Below are positions 4,450 to 63,941 of a stretch of DNA of 64,000 nt, in pieces. Numbering within the stretch: position 1 is the stretch's first letter; every line of letters starts with the position of its first letter. Source of the DNA: Alphaproteobacteria bacterium (GTDB lineage: Bacteria; Pseudomonadota; Alphaproteobacteria; Rs-D84); the NCBI GenBank assembly GCA_017471445.1, contig JAFUTJ010000015.1, positions 25,352 through 89,351 of the forward strand, read 5' to 3'. The notes below the pieces were generated by a model. The model was not told the DNA's origin, made no database searches, and saw only the letters and a list, made by a program, of their open reading frames with translations. A program made the translations under genes and the position numbers.

Positions 4450-5343
4450 TTAATTTGTTGGTACCAATTTTCCGCCCTGCATCTTTACTGCACTAATCCA
4501 ACATGTTGCGCCATTGCGTGGAACCGCCATGGCGTATTTTGTATGCTTTTCCGCATAAATATTTATGCCATTCATTGCCGTTTCGCCAATCCGACACAGC
4601 GGCAGGCACCGTCCATCACTTGTATGCCCATACCCCGCATCGCATTCCCAACAATCACGCGGTGTTAATGCGGTACCAGATACCCCCGGCATATTGGCAT
4701 AATGTGAATTTGGTGGCATATTTGTACAATCACGTATACCGGTGCAAATATAATTTTTTGTACTTCGACTATCACATCCATATATTTCGACCGCACCCGT
4801 AATTGGGTCATTATAGTATTCTTGTATGATATATGCGTTTTGTGAATCTGAATAAAACGCCTCGGCAAAAATACTGTTATGGTCGTCTGCGACCTTAAAA
4901 TTGTAATAACATTCTGTTATGTTTTTGGCGGTTAAAGACTTCGTTCGTGGCACCTTATAAACTGCAAACAAATAAATATCATTATAATCTTTGTAATATA
5001 CTTCCCATCCCCATGTTTTTTTGGGACATTCATATCGCGTATCATCCCCCGGGCAATAGCCGTATGCGACTTCTTTGTGCAGAACCACATCATTACATGT
5101 AATACATCTACCGTTTGACAAATAATACCCGGCATCGCATGTTGCAGCATTGGCAACGCCAATGCTGCAACAAAGTGCAATGAGCAGAGAACAAAAAGTA
5201 ATTTTTAATTTACACGCATGCCTTGTATGCGGATTTTTATTCACCCAGATTCCACGGTCAGGCCATAGAATTACATCAAATATTTTTTGCATCGTTGCTT
5301 TTTTGGATACAACTGAACTCTGAACACTGACAACTGTTGTCAT
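4450..5343 (-). CDS. Secreted cysteine-rich protein, family A paralog 1 (conserved C-terminal module)
   Basis: Signal-peptide h-region FCSLLIALCCSIGVANA. The mature N-terminus is ATCDAGYYLSNGRCITC. The C-terminus CWECDAGYGHTSDGRCLPLCRIGETAMNGINIYAEKHTKYAMAVPRNGATCWISA..QGGKL is shared with two other genes. RBS GGGGGA lies before the ATG at 5343. Confidence 0.75.
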   Translation of the reverse strand: MTTVVSVQSSVVSKKATMQKIFDVILWPDRGIWVNKNPHTRHACKLKITFCSLLIALCCSIGVANAATCDAGYYLSNGRCITCNDVVLHKEVAYGYCPGDDTRYECPKKTWGWEVYYKDYNDIYLFAVYKVPRTKSLTAKNITECYYNFKVADDHNSIFAEAFYSDSQNAYIIQEYYNDPITGAVEIYGCDSRSTKNYICTGIRDCTNMPPNSHYANMPGVSGTALTPRDCWECDAGYGHTSDGRCLPLCRIGETAMNGINIYAEKHTKYAMAVPRNGATCWISAVKMQGGKLVPTN

Positions 5344-11336: not shown

Positions 11337-12338
11337 CTAATTCACCATCTGTAATTTCCCGCCCTGCCCCCGTTTTGCATTAATCCAACACGTTGCATCG
11401 CCGCGTGGTACCGCCATGGCGTATTTGGTATGCTTTTCGGCGTATATATTTATTCCGTTCATTGCGGTTTCACCAATCCGGCACAGTGGTAAACACCGGT
11501 CATCGGATGTGTGACCGAATCCATCATCGCATTCCCATGGGCAATTTGGTGTGCCATCGGTTGTATTTGCGGCGGTATAGTGTGCATTTGCCGGTGCGTT
11601 TGTGCATGGCATGCAATCTGATGCCGCGGCGGCGGTATCCGTTGCCGTATACGTGCCAACCGGACAATTATTAGTTAACGTCACAACATCAGATGAATAA
11701 TAACCCCAACCAACAGGAATACATTTTATATTTGCCGCATCATCAAAACTCTTAAATGTCATATAATAATAACTTAAATTACTATAATTCGTTAGTGTCC
11801 TAAAATTAAACCAATACCCTGTATCACAAATCGGGAAACGCTGAATAGACGATGTTAAATTAAAATTACATTTATATGTTGCATTAACAGATGTAAAAGA
11901 AGAATTGGTGTCATTGTATGCGCATGAAAAATAACTGTATCCATGGTCAATTTTTACAACAAAATTAACTTCACAACGGGTAATGGATTCAACGACATTA
12001 TCACCATTAACCCACGAACTATACTTGTGTAAATAATCTATATGGTCTGAATCAATTTCTGGGCATCGCATTCGTAAATCATTACCTGGACAATAATACG
12101 ATGGTGTTTCACCATTACTGCGATTACATGGTTGGCACGTGCCCGTATCATCCAACCAATACCCCGCATCACACGTTGCGGCATGGGCATTGGTTAACAT
12201 GCACATGCCAAACACCACACCCCATGCACCAAAAAACCACCGTTTTTTGTGCACGGGTAAAGGAAAATAAAATGGCGGATTTCTGGGGCTTTGTAAAAAA
12301 CAATTTGTGCACCAAAAAACGGTGGTTTTTTGGTGCAC
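11337..12338 (-). CDS. Secreted cysteine-rich protein, family A paralog 2
   Basis: It starts on GTG at 12338 with AGGGAAAT as RBS. An alternative GTG start at 12254 would give a clean signal peptide, (V/M)HKKRWFFGAWGVVFGMCMLTNAHA. The mature N-terminus is ATCDAGYWL..C..C. The C-terminal 70 aa are nearly identical to paralog 3. Confidence 0.7.
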   Translation of the reverse strand: MHQKTTVFWCTNCFLQSPRNPPFYFPLPVHKKRWFFGAWGVVFGMCMLTNAHAATCDAGYWLDDTGTCQPCNRSNGETPSYYCPGNDLRMRCPEIDSDHIDYLHKYSSWVNGDNVVESITRCEVNFVVKIDHGYSYFSCAYNDTNSSFTSVNATYKCNFNLTSSIQRFPICDTGYWFNFRTLTNYSNLSYYYMTFKSFDDAANIKCIPVGWGYYSSDVVTLTNNCPVGTYTATDTAAAASDCMPCTNAPANAHYTAANTTDGTPNCPWECDDGFGHTSDDRCLPLCRIGETAMNGINIYAEKHTKYAMAVPRGDATCWINAKRGQGGKLQMVN

Positions 12339-12403
12339 GGCTTATTTCCCTGTACGCCACGTATTGTAACGCATTGGGCGATTTTTTTCAATATGTTTTT
12401 TAA

Positions 12404-13207
12404 CTAATTTACCGGAACCAATTTACCACCCTGCCCCCGTTTTGCACTAATCCAACATGTTGCGCCACCGCGTGGTACGGCCATGGCGTATTTGGTATGC
12501 TTTTCGGCATATATGTTAATACCGTTCATTGCGGTTTCACCAATCCGACACAGTGGTAAACACCGGTCATCGGATGTGTGACCGAATCCATCATCGCATT
12601 CCCACGGGCAATCGTTTGCGTCCTTAATTGTGCCATCCACACTATCTGGTGTACCGGGGCCGGTATAGTGCGCATTTGCCGGCGCGTTGGTGCATGGTTT
12701 TACGCCATTGTACCAAACTTTATACGTGGTACTTCTATATGGCGATAGATAATAACCGGTTCCCGCCTCATAATAATATACGCATCTAACGGGGTATTCT
12801 TGCTTGGTTGTGTCGTATGCAACCTCTGACAGGCAACTATAATTCTTAAAAACAAAAAATGTATGGCGCCAACAGTTTGTAATTTTGGAACGCGCCGCCT
12901 GTGACGAACCGTCATACGTAAATCCTGTGCCCCAAGAAGACACTCCGGGCCTCAACTCCTCTATGAAAGTATCATCAAGAAACTGGTCATATTTTCCAAT
13001 ATATTTATCTTCGGGGCATTCGTATCTGATATCATCACCCGGACAATAATATGCATTTTCGCAATATGTACATTCGTTTTCAGTATTCAGATAAAAATTT
13101 GCCGGACAATTTGCGGCGCGGGCCGTGCCGACACCGCCAAACGCCACCAGCGCAAAAATCGCCATACCGCAAATTTTACGTTTATTATAACATATAAATC
13201 TTGTCAT
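12404..13207 (-). CDS. Secreted cysteine-rich protein, family A paralog 3
   Basis: Signal peptide MTRFICYNKRKICGMAIFALVAFGGVGTARA. Mature N-terminus ANCPANFYLNTENECTYC. The conserved C-terminal module is CPWECDDGFGHTSDDRCLPLCRIGETAMNGINIYAEKHTKYAMAVPRGGATCWISAKRGQGGKL. RBS GGGGGA. Confidence 0.75.
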   Translation of the reverse strand: MTRFICYNKRKICGMAIFALVAFGGVGTARAANCPANFYLNTENECTYCENAYYCPGDDIRYECPEDKYIGKYDQFLDDTFIEELRPGVSSWGTGFTYDGSSQAARSKITNCWRHTFFVFKNYSCLSEVAYDTTKQEYPVRCVYYYEAGTGYYLSPYRSTTYKVWYNGVKPCTNAPANAHYTGPGTPDSVDGTIKDANDCPWECDDGFGHTSDDRCLPLCRIGETAMNGINIYAEKHTKYAMAVPRGGATCWISAKRGQGGKLVPVN

Positions 13208-25736: not shown

Positions 25737-26816
25737 CTAATTATTGAACAAGAAATGACAAATATCGCCTGGTTGCATTACATAATCACGACCAACGGTT
25801 CGCATTTTACCCGCCTCCTTAACCGCTAATTCCCCACCCAGCCCCAGCCAATCATCTGGCGAAATAATTTCGGCACGAATAAAACCACGCTCAAAATCCG
25901 TATGTATTTTACCGGCGGCCATCGGTGCGGTCATGCCACGCGTAATTGTCCATGCGTGCGCCTCTTTTGGGCCAACGGTATAAAACGTCTGTAATCCTAA
26001 TGTTTCATAGCCAGTTTTTATAACTTGGTCTAATCCAGATTGGGTCAGCCCCAATTCATCCAAGAACATCTTGCGTTCATCTGCATCAACAATTTGTGCA
26101 ATTTCCATTTCTATTTTTGATGAAATTATCAATACTGGATTTTCGTTCCCGAATTTTTCACGCACGACATCTGAATATTTATTTCCGGTTGCGGCCGCAG
26201 ATTCTTCAACATTACAAACATAAATAACCGGTTTGGCCGTCAACAGGTTAAATGGCACAGAATCAACACCTGTTTTTCGCGCAGGCGTACCATTTTCCAA
26301 TGCGTGCTTTATCGTATTTGCGGCATCTAATAATTTCGCCGCATCTTTGTCCAAACCACGTGCTTTCTTTTCCAGGTTTTTAATCTGCTTTTCCAAACTG
26401 TCCAAATCCGCCAGTGCCAATTCTGTTTCAATCGTATCAATATCGCCGATTGGATCAATTCGCCCATTTACATGAACAATATCATCATTATCAAAACATC
26501 GAACAACATGAATTATCGCATCGGTTGATAATATATTTCCCAAGAATTTATTTCCCAAACCTTCACCGGTTGATGCGCCACGAACCAGACCCGCAATATC
26601 AACAATTTCCAACTGGGTCGGTATAACCTTGGCTGCATTAACCGATGCCGCCAATTTCAGCAATGTTTCATCTGGCACAACAACACGGCCGGTATTCGGT
26701 TCAATCGTGCAAAACGGATAATTTTGCGCATCAGCCGCCGCACTTTGTGTTAATGCATTAAACAGTGTTGATTTACCGACATTCGGCAACCCAACAATTC
26801 CACAGTTGAATCCCAT
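25737..26816 (-). CDS. ychF: Redox-regulated ribosome-binding ATPase YchF
   Basis: Starts at MGFNCGIVGLPNVGKSTLFNALT (G1 motif). It has a C-terminal TGS domain and is 360 aa. Confidence 0.9.
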   Translation of the reverse strand: MGFNCGIVGLPNVGKSTLFNALTQSAAADAQNYPFCTIEPNTGRVVVPDETLLKLAASVNAAKVIPTQLEIVDIAGLVRGASTGEGLGNKFLGNILSTDAIIHVVRCFDNDDIVHVNGRIDPIGDIDTIETELALADLDSLEKQIKNLEKKARGLDKDAAKLLDAANTIKHALENGTPARKTGVDSVPFNLLTAKPVIYVCNVEESAAATGNKYSDVVREKFGNENPVLIISSKIEMEIAQIVDADERKMFLDELGLTQSGLDQVIKTGYETLGLQTFYTVGPKEAHAWTITRGMTAPMAAGKIHTDFERGFIRAEIISPDDWLGLGGELAVKEAGKMRTVGRDYVMQPGDICHFLFNN

Positions 26817-26844: not shown

Positions 26845-27525
26845 ATGGCATACATGTGGAACGAATTCAATATAAAACCAATACGTGCGGAAACAATTGT
26901 TTACCGCGATGGTGTATTTTTACCAGACGTGTCAACAATTGAAAACGGGCCAATTAACCGTAAATATGGATTGCCGGTACATGTTATTTATGTTGGTGAA
27001 ATTACCGGCGAAAATGCATTAAATATTGAAATAAACATTGAAAACCAACCGGTGTTTTTATCGGTAAACATAACAAATAAAACACCAACAATTTTTAATA
27101 TTTTTGTAAAAAATACCGGTAAAAAATCTGACTTTCGCGCGCACGTAATGTTAAATAATTCGGGTGAATTAAATTACCAATGCACGGCGCACCACACGGC
27201 CCCAGAAACAACAATTTTATTTCAGACAAAATTAATTGCCAACCGCGATTCAAAATCTAAAATTGCCGGCACGGCAATAATTGATAAAAATTGCGATGAT
27301 TGTATGTCCGACATCGGGTTTACCGCAATGGCAGACCGTTCGGCAAAAATATCATTTTTACCGGCCCAACGAATATTATCTGTACCACAACGGGCCGACC
27401 ATGGTGCGGCAATATACCGCCCAACCGATGCCCAGGTTTTATATTTGCGTGAATCCGGCCTATCCGGGGCAGAGGTTGATGATACCATGAAAGTGGCGTT
27501 CATGAACGATTTCGATTTATTCTGA
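26845..27525 (+). CDS. SufB/SufD-family protein (short, stand-alone)
   Basis: The C-terminus PTDAQVLYLRESGLSGAEVDDTMKVAFMNDF resembles the conserved SufB/SufD C-terminal helix (eQLFYLrSRGisEeeA...). No sufBC genes are adjacent. Confidence 0.45.
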   Translation: MAYMWNEFNIKPIRAETIVYRDGVFLPDVSTIENGPINRKYGLPVHVIYVGEITGENALNIEINIENQPVFLSVNITNKTPTIFNIFVKNTGKKSDFRAHVMLNNSGELNYQCTAHHTAPETTILFQTKLIANRDSKSKIAGTAIIDKNCDDCMSDIGFTAMADRSAKISFLPAQRILSVPQRADHGAAIYRPTDAQVLYLRESGLSGAEVDDTMKVAFMNDFDLF

Positions 27526-28449
27526 TTCCCGCCCATAAATAAATTCACTGGTACCGGAATTTTGGTGGAATTTTTGTTCCATCATGTCCCACATACCGTT
27601 ACTGGGCACCGTGTAATCGCCGATTCGTAATCCCGCCGGCACCGGAACCATGGTACGAATAATATCGTTAGAACGGCTGATGGTTATATCATATAGTTTT
27701 GCGATTGTTTTTGTATCACTGCTCGGATGAAGTAAAGTTATATTCTTGTCATTACCGTCAAAGTCAAAATAATTTATGTTTCTTACAACATCATCAAATA
27801 TAATATATCCAGAATTATTATAATTAAACATCAATGTGTATTTGTGATTCATAACAAGTTCATTAACCGATAATACCGGATTAGAATAACCAGAACCAGG
27901 CCCATAACCACAGGTAAATAACGTAACCCCATTATTGGTTCCACAATAAAAATGCGGGGAATATGTCGCAAATATTGGCGATGCCAGTTCGGTCAATTGA
28001 ATATATGCAAAATGCGTTTTAACGCCAACATTGTTTGCAGGGACAACATTTGTGCGAATTAATTGTTCACCGCTTGATTGAATATACACATCTGGGTCGG
28101 CATTAATCAGTTTACCGCCCGCAATTGTGTACCATGGACTGTAATCTGCGTGTAATACAATGTCGTGCGTATATGCGTACGGAATTGTTGTATTTGATGT
28201 AATAATTGTGTCACTGTCACCCACACGCCATGCGGGCGCATTGTTACAACCAACACCGGTTGTAAAGTTATTACCATACGCGGTGCTTTGTTGTGTTGGG
28301 GCATTCCCACCCGCCGGACAATCGTATGTTACGGTATATTGTTTCGGTATACAGAACTTTACATTTTCTGGTAATTCGGCATTTGCATTTGCCCAGAACA
28401 ACATCAAACCAAACAACACAGAAAACAACGATGATAATTTGTGTGTCAT
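27517..28449 (-). CDS. Secreted protein, family B paralog 1
   Basis: It starts at MTHKLSSLFSVLFGLMLFWANANA (signal peptide). Residues 1 to about 115 are nearly identical to 45659-46630. The rest is homologous but diverged (PHFYCG, FNYNNSG.IIFD, VPxGLRIGxYxVPxNGM, IYGR). Confidence 0.75.
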   Translation of the reverse strand: MTHKLSSLFSVLFGLMLFWANANAELPENVKFCIPKQYTVTYDCPAGGNAPTQQSTAYGNNFTTGVGCNNAPAWRVGDSDTIITSNTTIPYAYTHDIVLHADYSPWYTIAGGKLINADPDVYIQSSGEQLIRTNVVPANNVGVKTHFAYIQLTELASPIFATYSPHFYCGTNNGVTLFTCGYGPGSGYSNPVLSVNELVMNHKYTLMFNYNNSGYIIFDDVVRNINYFDFDGNDKNITLLHPSSDTKTIAKLYDITISRSNDIIRTMVPVPAGLRIGDYTVPSNGMWDMMEQKFHQNSGTSEFIYGRESE

Positions 28450-28690
28450 ATCTTTTTTTCCTCCCTGTTCCTTTATTTTTTCTAATAAAAAATATCCCAC
28501 GCGAAAACCGCAGTGGTTGGAGGTTCATAACTACAATAAGGTATAGCGGGCCTATTCAATATATTCAGCACCCCTCCAACCAAATTTAGATTGGAGATTT
28601 ACTATCGCCGCCCATACGGCAATACCTTATTTCAGGGTTATGACGCCCCAACACGTGCGAACACGCGTCGCGATAATATTAAATCATATT
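28450..28690 (-). promoter_or_regulatory. Conserved 5' leader of family B genes (copy 1) with long hairpin GGTTGGAGG...CCTCCAACC (28515-28581)
   Basis: Immediately upstream of the ATG, 74 nt are identical to 45585-45658. A 9-bp inverted repeat encloses about 50 nt. Further upstream similarity extends to the GCGACG...TGGGGCGTCA block. Confidence 0.45.
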
Positions 28691-32240: not shown

Positions 32241-33590
32241 ATGATAAAAGTTACTATTGCTGGCCGTCCGAATACGGGTAAATCAACACTGTTTAACGCA
32301 TTAACCGGAACGCGTGATGCGATTGTACACGACCGTCCGGGCGTGACACGCGACACAAACAACGGTACATTTCGTGACCGCCCATGGTCATTGCGCGATA
32401 CTGCGGGGCTGGAAAATGCGAAAAACGGCATTGCCGCCGATTCAACAAATATGGCAATATCTGCGATAACAGATGCAGATGCGATTTTATTTGTTGTTGA
32501 TGGACGCACAGGCGTAACCGCGTCAGATATTGAATGGGGGCGTATGGTTCGCCGTAAAACACGCGCGCCGGTATTATTATTGGTAAACAAAGCAGAATCA
32601 GAAAAACGATTGGTGGACATTAATGAATTTTATAAATTGGGATTTGGTGCACCGGTCTTAATTTCCGCAGAACACAAGAATGGATTTGATGCGATATACG
32701 AATTCTTGGACAAAATCGCGCCCGCAAATGATGCAACAAACACACAAATAAATACATCAAACGAATCTGATACGCGCATAAAAATTGCGGTTCTGGGGCA
32801 ACCGAATGTTGGTAAATCAACATTTGTAAATCGTGTATTGGGCGTAAACCGCCAAATCGTTATGGATGCGCCCGGCATTACCCGTGATACGGTAAAATTT
32901 ACAACAAAATTTTACGGGCGCGATATTATGATAATGGATACCGCCGGCCTGCGGCGCAAGGCGGGCGTGACAGACGACGTAGAAACATTGGCCGCACTAA
33001 AATCACTGGATGCGATTGACAAAGCAGATGTTGTTATCTTAATCGTTGATGCAACCCGCGACATAGAAAATCAGGCATTATCAATCGCAGCACGTGTATA
33101 CGACGCAGGGCGTATTTTATGCGTTGCACTGAATAAATGGGATTTGGTACCACCCGAATTACGCGATGACAAATTACTAAAATTAAAGCATCAGTTTACA
33201 AATTCTTTTCATCAGATAATAAAGCCGATGATATTGGCAATTTCTGCGGAAACAGGAACCGGCGTGCAAAATATGTTTCGCCGTATTTATGAACAGTGGG
33301 ACATTTCATCGAGCACCGTCCCAACCAGTTTATTAAACAGAATCGTTGAAAAATTGGTTATTGAACGCCAACCACCAATGTCACGGTTAAAACGTCCGAT
33401 GAAAATAAAATTTGCACGCCAAACCGGCCGCCACCCAATGCGTATATCAATTAATGTTGGCGGCGCATCCGACATACCAGAATCGTATACGCGTTATCTG
33501 CGACGCGGTATTGCAACGGCATTACATTGGGAACATTTGCCGATTACGATTGATTACAAAAAATCGGAAAATCCGTTTGATGACAAATAA
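32241..33590 (+). CDS. der: Ribosome biogenesis GTPase Der (EngA)
   Basis: Two tandem GTPase domains (GRPNTGKSTLFNAL; GQPNVGKSTFVNRV) and a KH-like C-terminus. Alternative upstream ATGs lie at 32229 and 32205. Confidence 0.9.
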   Translation: MIKVTIAGRPNTGKSTLFNALTGTRDAIVHDRPGVTRDTNNGTFRDRPWSLRDTAGLENAKNGIAADSTNMAISAITDADAILFVVDGRTGVTASDIEWGRMVRRKTRAPVLLLVNKAESEKRLVDINEFYKLGFGAPVLISAEHKNGFDAIYEFLDKIAPANDATNTQINTSNESDTRIKIAVLGQPNVGKSTFVNRVLGVNRQIVMDAPGITRDTVKFTTKFYGRDIMIMDTAGLRRKAGVTDDVETLAALKSLDAIDKADVVILIVDATRDIENQALSIAARVYDAGRILCVALNKWDLVPPELRDDKLLKLKHQFTNSFHQIIKPMILAISAETGTGVQNMFRRIYEQWDISSSTVPTSLLNRIVEKLVIERQPPMSRLKRPMKIKFARQTGRHPMRISINVGGASDIPESYTRYLRRGIATALHWEHLPITIDYKKSENPFDDK

Positions 33591-45439: not shown

Positions 45440-45658
45440 TTGATGCGACGTATTGTCGCATTGGGCGTCAGAACCCATAGAGGTGTCGGGATTACACCGA
45501 CAATTAAAATTCCAGCCGGCTATTTATCGGTTGGAGTGTGTGGAATATTTAGAATAACACACGCAATTCCTCTAATTGTTCTGAAGCTCCAACCACTGCG
45601 GTTTTCGCGTGGGATATTTTTTATTAGAAAAAATAAAGGAACAGGGAGAAAAAAAGAT
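45440..45658 (+). promoter_or_regulatory. Conserved 5' leader of family B genes (copy 2) with hairpin GGTTGGAG...CTCCAACC (45529-45594)
   Basis: The 74 nt before the ATG are identical to copy 1, and the upstream GCGACG...TGGGCGTCA block is shared. It contains the RBS GGAACAGGGAG. Confidence 0.45.
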
Positions 45659-46630
45659 ATGACAGGCAAATTATCATCATCGGTGTTTTATGTGTTGTTT
45701 GGTTTGATGTTGTTCTGGGCAAATGCAAATGCCGAATTACCAGAAAATGTAAAGTTCTGTATACCGAAACAATATAGGGTAACATACGATTGTCCGGCGG
45801 GTGGGAATGCGCCAACACAACAAACCACCGCGTATGGTAATAACTTTACAACCGGTGTTGGTTGTAACAATGCGCCCGCATGGCGTGTTGATGACAGTGA
45901 CACAATAATTACATCAAATACAACAATTCCATACGCATATACGCACGACATTGTATTACACGCAGATTACAGTCCGTGGTACACAATTGCGGGCGGACGG
46001 CTGATTAATGCCGATGCGGATGTGTATTTAAACAACAATCTTTCTGCATACGCATCATATGGCATTGATACGGGTGTAATGTCCACAAATAATATCGGAT
46101 GGGCAATTAATTTTACATATGAACAATTCAGAAATAGCGAAACACCAGAACATATTATTGGAACAATGTTCCCACATTTTTATTGTGGAATTGATACGGC
46201 CCATACTGGTTTTCTTTGCGCCTGTGGCCCAGAGGCCGGTTATGGAAACGGCATTGAAAACTACACAAATATGATTGTCGGCAAAAAATACAATCTGTTA
46301 TTTAACTATAATAATTCTGGCAAAATTATTTTTGATTACACGACCAATCTTGATTTATCGTGCACAGAATTGAATAACACGATTGGTAACACAATACGTT
46401 TGTTTCGTTCAACATCACAAAACGTAAATGCAACCAGCACGAATAATTATAGCATGGCAAAAATATATGATGTAAAAATCAGCGATGGCCAAACAATGAT
46501 TCGTAATTTTGTGGCGGTACCGTCGGGTCTGCGCATTGGTAATTATATCGTTCCAAAAAACGGCATGTTTGATATTGTTGAACAGAAATTTTATCAACCT
46601 GTTGCGAATATGATATATGGGCGCGATTAA
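45659..46630 (+). CDS. Secreted protein, family B paralog 2
   Basis: The start is at MTGKLSSSVFYVLFGLMLFWANANA (ATG at 45659, RBS GGGAG). The ORF-track start at 45440 is an in-frame upstream extension through the leader. The N-terminal 115 aa are nearly identical to paralog 1. Confidence 0.75.
   Translation: MTGKLSSSVFYVLFGLMLFWANANAELPENVKFCIPKQYRVTYDCPAGGNAPTQQTTAYGNNFTTGVGCNNAPAWRVDDSDTIITSNTTIPYAYTHDIVLHADYSPWYTIAGGRLINADADVYLNNNLSAYASYGIDTGVMSTNNIGWAINFTYEQFRNSETPEHIIGTMFPHFYCGIDTAHTGFLCACGPEAGYGNGIENYTNMIVGKKYNLLFNYNNSGKIIFDYTTNLDLSCTELNNTIGNTIRLFRSTSQNVNATSTNNYSMAKIYDVKISDGQTMIRNFVAVPSGLRIGNYIVPKNGMFDIVEQKFYQPVANMIYGRD

Positions 46631-63864: not shown

Positions 63865-63941
<77 letters not shown>

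Follow-up and report, generated by a model that had tools for sequence, protein, structure and literature searches.

Probable concerted evolution of a dispersed, exported two-domain protein family in an uncultured alphaproteobacterium

The stretch analysed here, called the window, covers 64,000 nucleotides (nt) of contig JAFUTJ010000015.1 and carries two genes of one family on opposite strands, about 17 kb apart. Copy A lies at 27517–28449 on the minus strand (310 amino acids, aa, plus stop), and copy B lies at 45659–46630 on the plus strand (323 aa plus stop); both were defined from the open reading frame (ORF) and its translation. Their 5′ parts and untranslated leaders are almost the same DNA and their 3′ parts are strongly diverged, which raises the question of how such a pair could have arisen. 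A model-generated first-pass annotation of this DNA had already reported the two ORFs, and their positions and orientation were confirmed. A tblastn search of the 64-kb window found no copies other than A and B. It is likely, at a probability of roughly 0.72, that the paralogs are under concerted evolution by repeated ectopic gene conversion, in an exported two-domain family with a variable jelly-roll head.

Identity block between copies A and B

The repeat finder detected two pairs of inverted arms, 28084–28438 with 45673–46027 (355 nt, 95%) and 28454–28531 with 45578–45655 (78 nt, 96%), at a separation of about 17.1–17.2 kb. Together they form a block of about 450 nt that runs from position −78 to codon ~122. 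The homogenised block occupies 28084–28531 (minus strand) in copy A, where it comprises the leader, the signal peptide, the N-module and the first strand of the C-domain, and 45578–46027 (plus strand) in copy B. Global alignment, the inverted-repeat arms and the maximal chi-square segment test all support these limits. The first-pass annotation had given 115 codons and 74 nt; the block itself is real, and its extents needed a minor correction to about 122 codons and 78 nt.

The shared non-coding leader showed 76/78 identical positions (97.4%) over −78 to −1. It is located at 28450–28527 (minus strand) in copy A, with a GGGAGG ribosome-binding site, and by alignment at 45582–45658 (plus strand) in copy B. 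The signal peptide of copy A, MTHKLSSLFSVLFGLMLFWANANA (28378–28449, minus strand), has a basic n-region, a hydrophobic core and an A-x-A site with cleavage before ELPEN; that of copy B, MTGKLSSSVFYVLFGLMLFWANANA, is encoded at 45659–45733 (plus strand). Both were read from the sequence, and their codons are 90.7% identical with a single 3-nt indel. From these features we infer that both proteins are exported through a Sec signal peptide with an A-x-A (signal-peptidase-I-type) site.

The N-module (ELPENVKF..YTIAG) has 87 codons and three cysteines and is located at 28117–28377 (minus strand) in copy A and, from alignment and hhalign, at 45734–45994 (plus strand) in copy B. Its identity between the copies is 252/261 nt, or 96.6%. 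Over the 11 codons that follow (GKLINADPDVY), identity is 78.8%. Beyond the block it drops to 58% in the remainder of the gene, 63% upstream of −78 and 51% in the 3′ flank. At the protein level A and B are 58% identical overall. Their C-domains (27520–28116, minus strand, and 45995–46627, plus strand) belong to one predicted fold family and, as the first-pass annotation had put it, are homologous yet strongly diverged, with 43% aa identity and several indels.

The maximal chi-square segment test counted differences at 13/405 nt inside the block versus 217/648 nt outside, giving a value of 134 against a permutation maximum of 22.8 (n = 300). The comparison of breakpoints proposed in the first-pass annotation thus returned, by alignment, repeat finder and chi-square alike, a sharply bounded block and no uniform divergence along the gene. 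Nei-Gojobori estimates of synonymous divergence (dS) between A and B were 0.10 for the N-module and 1.46, effectively saturated, for the C-domain; the nonsynonymous values (dN) were 0.017 and 0.54, respectively. Selection at the protein level cannot produce such a block, because of this dS contrast and because conservation of the untranslated leader equals that of the coding part.

Paralog family, mosaic sites and a candidate conversion tract

The sequence search gave ten whole-protein relatives, which came from ENA metagenome assemblies and one NCBI metagenome-assembled genome (MAG, IJ560_*). Copy B is identical to NCBI MBR1380536.1 (IJ560_03020) of this MAG, which is named 'Alphaproteobacteria bacterium'. 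The genome-wide search for further copies, also proposed at first pass, found more paralogs: the MAG contains at least nine N-module genes, including copy A. Three of these genes end at contig ends, two of them inside the N-module (truncated members P0007, P0008 and P0034), and the repeat therefore breaks assemblies. DNA was fetched for eight paralog loci, and seven full-length genes (21 pairs) entered the dS comparison. The first-pass annotation had proposed a search for orphan C-terminal cassettes. Neither partial nor orphan copies occur in the window or at any of the eight fetched loci.

At the fetched loci every paralog is a lone gene amid unrelated housekeeping genes, and no neighbour is conserved. 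The neighbours include ybaB/pnp, dnaN, mnmE, mnmG, fabZ and an RND pump, and one paralog adjoins the gene of a YadA-anchor adhesin. Copy A is placed between ybaB/pnp and a SufBD-like gene/ychF, and copy B between yajC/secDF and xth. The orthologue of copy A in another assembly (L001), P0001, is syntenic, with ybaB-pnp on one side and the SufBD-like gene plus ychF on the other.

Over the N-module, six other paralog loci showed 93–96% nt identity to copy B. In all 21 pairs the N-module dS was 0.02–0.23 and the dN 0.005–0.033. The C-domains of paralogous pairs gave dS values from 0.86 to saturated and aa identities of 30–48%. Because the synonymous sites of the jelly roll are saturated, the paralogs are old. 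The motif ELPENVKFCIPKQY is invariant in 10/10 members that include the region.

The 3′ end of the identity block is common to all seven loci and lies just after ..GATGTGTAT (DVY; 46027–46029 in copy B). The 5′ ends vary: about −130 in copy A (with reduced identity), −75 in P0004, −47 in P0002, and exactly the signal-peptide cleavage site in P0005, P0006 and P0009. Two types of leader and signal peptide were observed, type 1 in A, B, P0001, P0002 and P0004 and type 2 in P0006, P0008 and P0009; P0005 and P0010 are singletons. Inside the 261-nt N-module, 26/78 informative site pairs failed the four-gamete test, which implies repeated exchange of segments among the paralogs.

A second conserved arm, exchanged by some pairs only, is made up of the last ~45 codons. 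The tails of A and P0004 are 93% nt identical, with 37/40 same-residue codons identical, and the middle parts are 35% identical; the tails of A and B are only 63% identical. The first-pass description of a homogenised 5′ end and a diversified 3′ end thus fits the A/B pair, but family-wide there is a further conserved arm in the last ~45 codons. In P0008–P0010 the N-module is fused to unrelated Cys-rich C-parts.

Assembly L001 (sample ERZ28655174) shares synteny with the window, with 99.957% identity over 20.9 kb. All nine differing positions fall at 28461–28327, where copy A has its leader and the start of its coding sequence, and seven of the nine differences reproduce copy B. Over 28461–28421, L001 equals copy B exactly, through one 1-nt indel, one 3-nt indel and four substitutions, and at the final difference (28327) the L001 base matches the paralogs P0002 and P0006. 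This candidate recent conversion tract of copy A (28421–28461, minus strand) has on either side a stretch of perfect identity between the copies, of 62 nt and 87 nt. The difference resembles a short, very recent conversion tract, but it could also be an assembly chimera.

Taken as concerted evolution, the family would be an old one with at least nine members per genome, dispersed singly among the housekeeping genes of an uncultured gut/ruminant alphaproteobacterium. Each member would have three parts: a Sec-type signal peptide, a Cys-containing N-module of ~87 residues and a jelly roll of ~200 residues. Ectopic, non-reciprocal homologous recombination would keep the N-module near-identical at the DNA level in every member, and in subsets the same conversion would act on the leader plus signal peptide or on the last ~45 codons. 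The outcome would be exported proteins in which a variable 'head' sits on a constant 'handle'. The N-module may be kept uniform for a common partner or for a shared export or anchoring step, and recombination inside the shared arms may re-assort leaders with heads. Segmental gene conversion, which the first-pass annotation had proposed, is supported by the dS of 0.10 against about 1.5, the leader identity, the mosaic sites and the tract that differs between assemblies.

Three side observations concern the family. P0009 lies 72 nt downstream of the gene for a 1,032-aa YadA-anchor protein, a trimeric autotransporter adhesin (L007, 831–3929), and is the only member found adjoining another adhesin-type gene. 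About 6 kb after P0006, the region L006 6976–12950 is almost without called genes and may be an rRNA operon, other non-coding DNA or an unassembled repeat. A sister group with signal peptides repeats the pattern with another N-module, 'ARILHVGDNTIKLSQTKTTTPAL...'; its N-module identity is at least 80%, the middle about 33% and the tail 95%.

Predicted fold of the C-domain and relatives of the N-module

An AlphaFold2 model from a 64-sequence alignment gave a predicted local distance difference test score (pLDDT) of 85–97 over the C-domain of copy A (residues ~110–309). In the Protein Data Bank (PDB), Foldseek matched it to laminin LG5 (1qu0), neurexin, agrin LG, pentraxin and CBM66, and to the lectin domains of Vibrio cholerae sialidase and trypanosome trans-sialidase. 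On the basis of these matches the C-domain is a predicted LamG/ConA-like jelly roll with two sheets and about 180–200 residues. The first-pass annotation had recognised no known domain and had proposed profile search and structure prediction. Its statement holds for Pfam, PHROGs, NCBIfam and the PDB sequences, which yielded no significant match to A or B and hence no well-characterised housekeeping family. Profile or fold comparison nevertheless assigns a place to both domains. Searches of Pfam, NCBIfam and PHROG with A, B and 20 relatives gave no match to the domain; one PHROG of unknown function matched an extra C-terminal extension of two relatives.

The domain itself is very widespread. 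A profile of the C-terminal ~200 residues found 108 unnamed metagenomic proteins. A HMMER search of 1.84 billion cluster representatives (50%-identity clusters; jelly-roll superfamily entries P0011–P0260) gave 25,567 proteins at E ≤ 1e-3, of which 2,704 reached E ≤ 1e-30. Proteins of ~1,000 aa with 4–12 tandem copies of the domain are numerous among them.

Several relatives are of phage type. Against BFVD, the best Foldseek match was an uncharacterised gut siphovirus protein (E 1.5e-11), and phage proteins named 'LamG-like jellyroll' and 'ConA-like' were matched at E ≤ 1e-3. P0044 showed 30% identity over the whole domain (BLASTP, E 1e-23), with a profile E of about 1e-35 for phage homologues. 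Its gene closes a baseplate/tail module on a 40.7-kb phage-like contig (L011), and a lysozyme gene follows directly. The IMG/VR contig L013 encodes a 608-aa fibre-like protein that ends in the domain (BLASTP, 3e-15); its gene belongs to a fibre cluster, and the gene after this cluster was read as an M15-type peptidase. The tblastn search of INPHARED phages with copy A and P0044 gave no match.

The phage tail-fibre tips share with A and B the homologous sequence, the predicted fold, the conserved first strand (..YL.S.GTQYIDTG) and the last strands (VPVP.GL.IG.. VP.NGM.D.V.Q.FY.N.G.G.F). Unlike phage fibres, A and B have Sec signal peptides, a Flg_new-like N-module replaces the fibre shaft, and there is no prophage. 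The window genes lie outside any phage or prophage structural module, alone among housekeeping genes.

By analogy with these folds, the jelly-roll heads would bind different ligands, probably glycans. In LamG domains the first and last strands are adjacent and lie away from the loop rim that usually binds the ligand. This strand layout would fit conserved ends and a variable middle. The variable adhesin considered at first pass is plausible, because the variable part is predicted to have a lectin fold.

For the N-module, a tblastn scan of GTDB representative genomes recovered one distant Clostridia Flg_new protein only (32% identity), and the lineage's own genome was not recovered. The Clostridia match consists of three Listeria-Bacteroides (Flg_new) repeats (Pfam E 1e-40). 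Aligned by hhalign against these three repeats, the N-module alignment gave a probability of 91% and an E of 1.1e-6 at 33% identity, over 69/75 columns. A scan of the Joint Genome Institute (JGI) metagenomes with the N-module found nothing. The N-module resembles the Flg_new repeat (PF09479; for example the InlB B-repeat) in its length, its Y-T-V-T-Y-D..GG start, its central W and its terminal hydrophobic strand. It differs from it in scoring below the Pfam threshold, in having three cysteines, in being single rather than tandem and in occurring in a diderm alphaproteobacterium. Flg_new repeats are counted among the adhesion-type surface proteins of gut microbes (PMC7883539).

Competing explanations, known systems and other features of the window

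Other explanations have to account for the same block. Purifying selection on the N-module protein, without recombination, would agree with the very low N-module dN and with ELPENVKFCIPKQY being invariant in ten members, yet it is most improbable: dS is 0.10 against about 1.5 within the same genes, the 78-nt untranslated leader is 97% identical, the informative sites are phylogenetically incompatible, and the identity ends abruptly at a common point. Moving the selection to a nucleotide-level function of the ~450 nt, such as a structured RNA, does not help, since Rfam and folding gave no support. A recent duplication of the whole gene, followed by diversifying selection on the C-terminal two-thirds, would draw on the fairly high dN/dS of the C-domain (about 0.37–0.8, with saturated dS) and on the variable region making the loops of a binding fold. 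It is very unlikely, since positive selection on amino acids does not yield a saturated dS of 1.46 and many indels. No relationship is seen between the 3′ flanks or between the sequences upstream of −78, and six more paralogs carry the same block with unrelated flanks. A somewhat better, though still unlikely, account is one-off domain shuffling, in which a leader/N-module cassette spread to diverse jelly-roll genes, or phage heads were acquired, with no ongoing conversion. The common 3′ junction lies exactly at the domain boundary, the heads are homologous to phage tail-fibre tips, the N-module also sits on the unrelated Cys-rich C-parts of P0008–P0010, and leader types occur in an unrelated family. 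Against it, the variable 5′ ends of the block and the mosaic internal sites imply repeated exchange, the identity of the tail arm varies by pair, and one tract differs between near-identical assemblies. One-off shuffling overlaps with concerted evolution in mechanism, as both need homologous recombination, and it is disfavoured as the sole cause.

A collapsed or averaged repeat in the metagenome assembly could make the copies look too alike or too mosaic. All data are short-read MAG or metagenome contigs, P0007, P0008 and P0034 are truncated at contig ends, and perfect-identity stretches of 62–87 nt flank the candidate tract. Nevertheless, the variants recur in separate assemblies: P0001 was found on three contigs, P0003 is the same in the NCBI record and the window, and P0010 is identical in three samples from two sources. 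The copies keep ~3% private differences, unique flanks anchor both sides within single contigs, and mosaic sites are as close as 6 nt (P0002 signal peptide), which is inside any k-mer. Because of these recurring copy-specific variants, unique flanks and closely spaced mosaic sites, a wholesale artefact is very unlikely. Programmed variation would involve a 17-kb inversion through the 450-nt repeats (as in vsa/vpma or the Bacteroides shufflons), or polymorphic-toxin or diversity-generating retroelement (DGR) cassettes. The copies are indeed inverted repeats 17 kb apart with several leader types in the family, and 5′ chimeras of the Helicobacter pylori bab genes change regulation (PMC4552749). 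This explanation deserves very little credence, since the 17-kb interval and its flanks contain no recombinase or reverse transcriptase, and no orphan cassettes, template repeats or other variable-region repeat occur in the window. None of the copies is a silent cassette, since each comes with a leader, ribosome-binding site, ATG and signal peptide of its own. The polymorphic-toxin analogy of the first-pass annotation fails likewise: all C-parts with a predicted fold are homologous jelly rolls, no toxin domain was found, and the window and eight fetched loci show no conserved downstream immunity-like ORF.

Two candidates of this kind were rejected separately. A recent 17-kb inversion is at odds with the GC skew, which shows no flip between A and B, and with the collinear order of the two assemblies across copy A. 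For a DGR, a recombinase switch or a toxin/immunity locus, no recombinase, reverse transcriptase, silent cassette, template repeat, toxin or immunity gene was found.

Several points weigh against the proposed concerted evolution and against the domain assignments that go with it. All sequences are metagenome assemblies, and de Bruijn assemblers can make chimeric paths through repeats. The difference between L001 and the window could thus be an artefact, because the assemblies are short-read and perfect identities of 62 and 87 nt flank the tract. The PDB matches of the C-domain are weak (E from 5e-3, target template modelling score ~0.5), despite Foldseek probabilities of 0.99–1.0. The Pfam model Flg_new (PF09479) gave no match at E ≤ 10, either to the N-module alone or to the full proteins. 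The N-module modelled separately had low confidence (pLDDT 65.6), and its best Foldseek E of 0.42 is not significant; this non-significant list contained lmo0835 (2kvz), InlB392 (9qr5/9qr4), MucBP (3nz3) and ubiquitin-like domains. Searching with an N-module profile recovered no protein, its own family included, and was judged a tool failure and not evidence. Because the Pfam model misses the N-module and the separate model is weak, the N-module is called Flg_new-like, and not a member of that family.

In behaviour, the closest known system is the Bab/Hop family of H. pylori, whose binding-protein paralogs are likewise dispersed and homogenised in their arms. In babA/babB/babC, 5′ and 3′ segments are exchanged between loci by intragenomic gene conversion, the central part differs, and chimeric genes result (PMC4552749). 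That paper cites Pride & Blaser 2002 on concerted evolution. Unlike the family described here, Hop proteins are beta-barrel outer-membrane proteins, and no CT-repeat phase variation was seen in this family. The leader types, which are shared between unrelated mature proteins, resemble those of Borrelia erp and Mycoplasma vsp/vlp. The Borrelia erp/ospE-F-elp and Mycoplasma vsp/vlp genes have near-identical upstream regions and signal peptides with diverged mature parts. These are lipoprotein families with lipoboxes, often clustered or plasmid-borne, and some have site-specific recombinases. In contrast, the genes studied here encode A-x-A signal peptides, are dispersed on the chromosome and have no recombinase nearby.

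Polymorphic toxins (Rhs, CDI, MafB) are similar in their constant N-terminal part, variable C-terminal part and recombination at the junction. Unlike them, this family has one homologous lectin-like C-fold, no immunity genes and no orphan C-terminal or immunity cassettes, and it contains no Rhs, filamentous-haemagglutinin or PT-trafficking domains. The genes downstream of the fetched paralogs are unrelated housekeeping genes, not immunity genes. By comparison with these systems, the new family would fit a known kind, the concerted evolution of the constant part in a variable, probably ligand-binding, protein family.

A further idea, possible but doubtful, is that the heads are domesticated phage receptor-binding heads placed behind a Sec signal and a Flg_new-like docking module, with the arms acting as a combinatorial shuffling system. 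If true, recombination in the arms would re-assort promoters and leaders and spread heads between loci, even to unrelated secreted families. The heads might then serve attachment to other microbes, a host or glycans; alternatively, they might cover surface glycans of the cell itself and so mask phage receptors.

The conversion mechanism is textbook, and neither the protein family nor the very large superfamily of its head domain has been characterised. If concerted evolution is correct, this uncultured gut alphaproteobacterium would offer a clean example of it, including a candidate conversion tract between assemblies that are 99.96% identical. Two 'hypothetical' modules are tied to recognisable folds, and a curated model of the jelly-roll head would annotate thousands of proteins. 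The phage relatives suggest bacterial re-use of receptor-binding heads as exported proteins. For annotation, such repeats are a warning that they break or scramble MAG assemblies.

Signals around the leader were also observed. A weak 5-bp hairpin followed by a T-run lies in the shared leader of both copies, ~45 nt before the ATG on the gene strand (28513–28497, minus strand, in copy A; 45596–45612, plus strand, in copy B). The leader was rejected as a regulatory RNA or terminator, as it had no Rfam match, a non-significant fold (z of −1.56, B copy) and only this hairpin. A scan of the gene strand upstream of the two ATGs showed no sigma-70-type promoter. A semi-conserved box (GGTTGGAG...GAATAT.T.GAATA), common to A, B, P0004 and P0010, lies ~90–120 nt before the ATG, at ~28540–28600 (minus strand) and 45510–45575 (plus strand), and also in the L004 and L008 upstream regions. 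It is outside the high-identity block and may be a promoter or regulator site, without a match in the sigma-70 scan.

The window contains a second paralog family of three Cys-rich exported proteins, all on the minus strand (4450–5343, 11337–12338 and 12404–13207), which is presumably the 'Family A' of the first-pass annotation, where A and B were Family B. No Pfam match was found in the two Family A proteins scanned. The three genes share a 211-nt 3′ block (72–90% nt) encoding ...CPWECDDGFGHTSDDRCLPLCRIGETAMNGINIYAEKHTKYAMAVPRG.ATCWISAKRGQGGKLVPVN, so in this family it is the C-terminal end that is homogenised. The leader and signal peptide of the gene at 11337–12338 (12214–12401, minus strand) are 92–94% nt identical to type 2 of P0006 and P0009 (L006, L007). 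P0008 joins the Family B N-module to a Family A-like Cys-rich C-part. With the shared leaders and this fusion, leader, N-module and C-part therefore re-assort between unrelated secreted families.

A 50-nt inverted repeat of 82% identity (26749–26798 and 32256–32305) lies inside the GTPase genes ychF and der. It is read as a shared P-loop-encoding segment; if so, it is a trivial motif similarity and not a repeat element. The sole Rfam match in the window is a tRNA gene at 63865–63938 on the plus strand.

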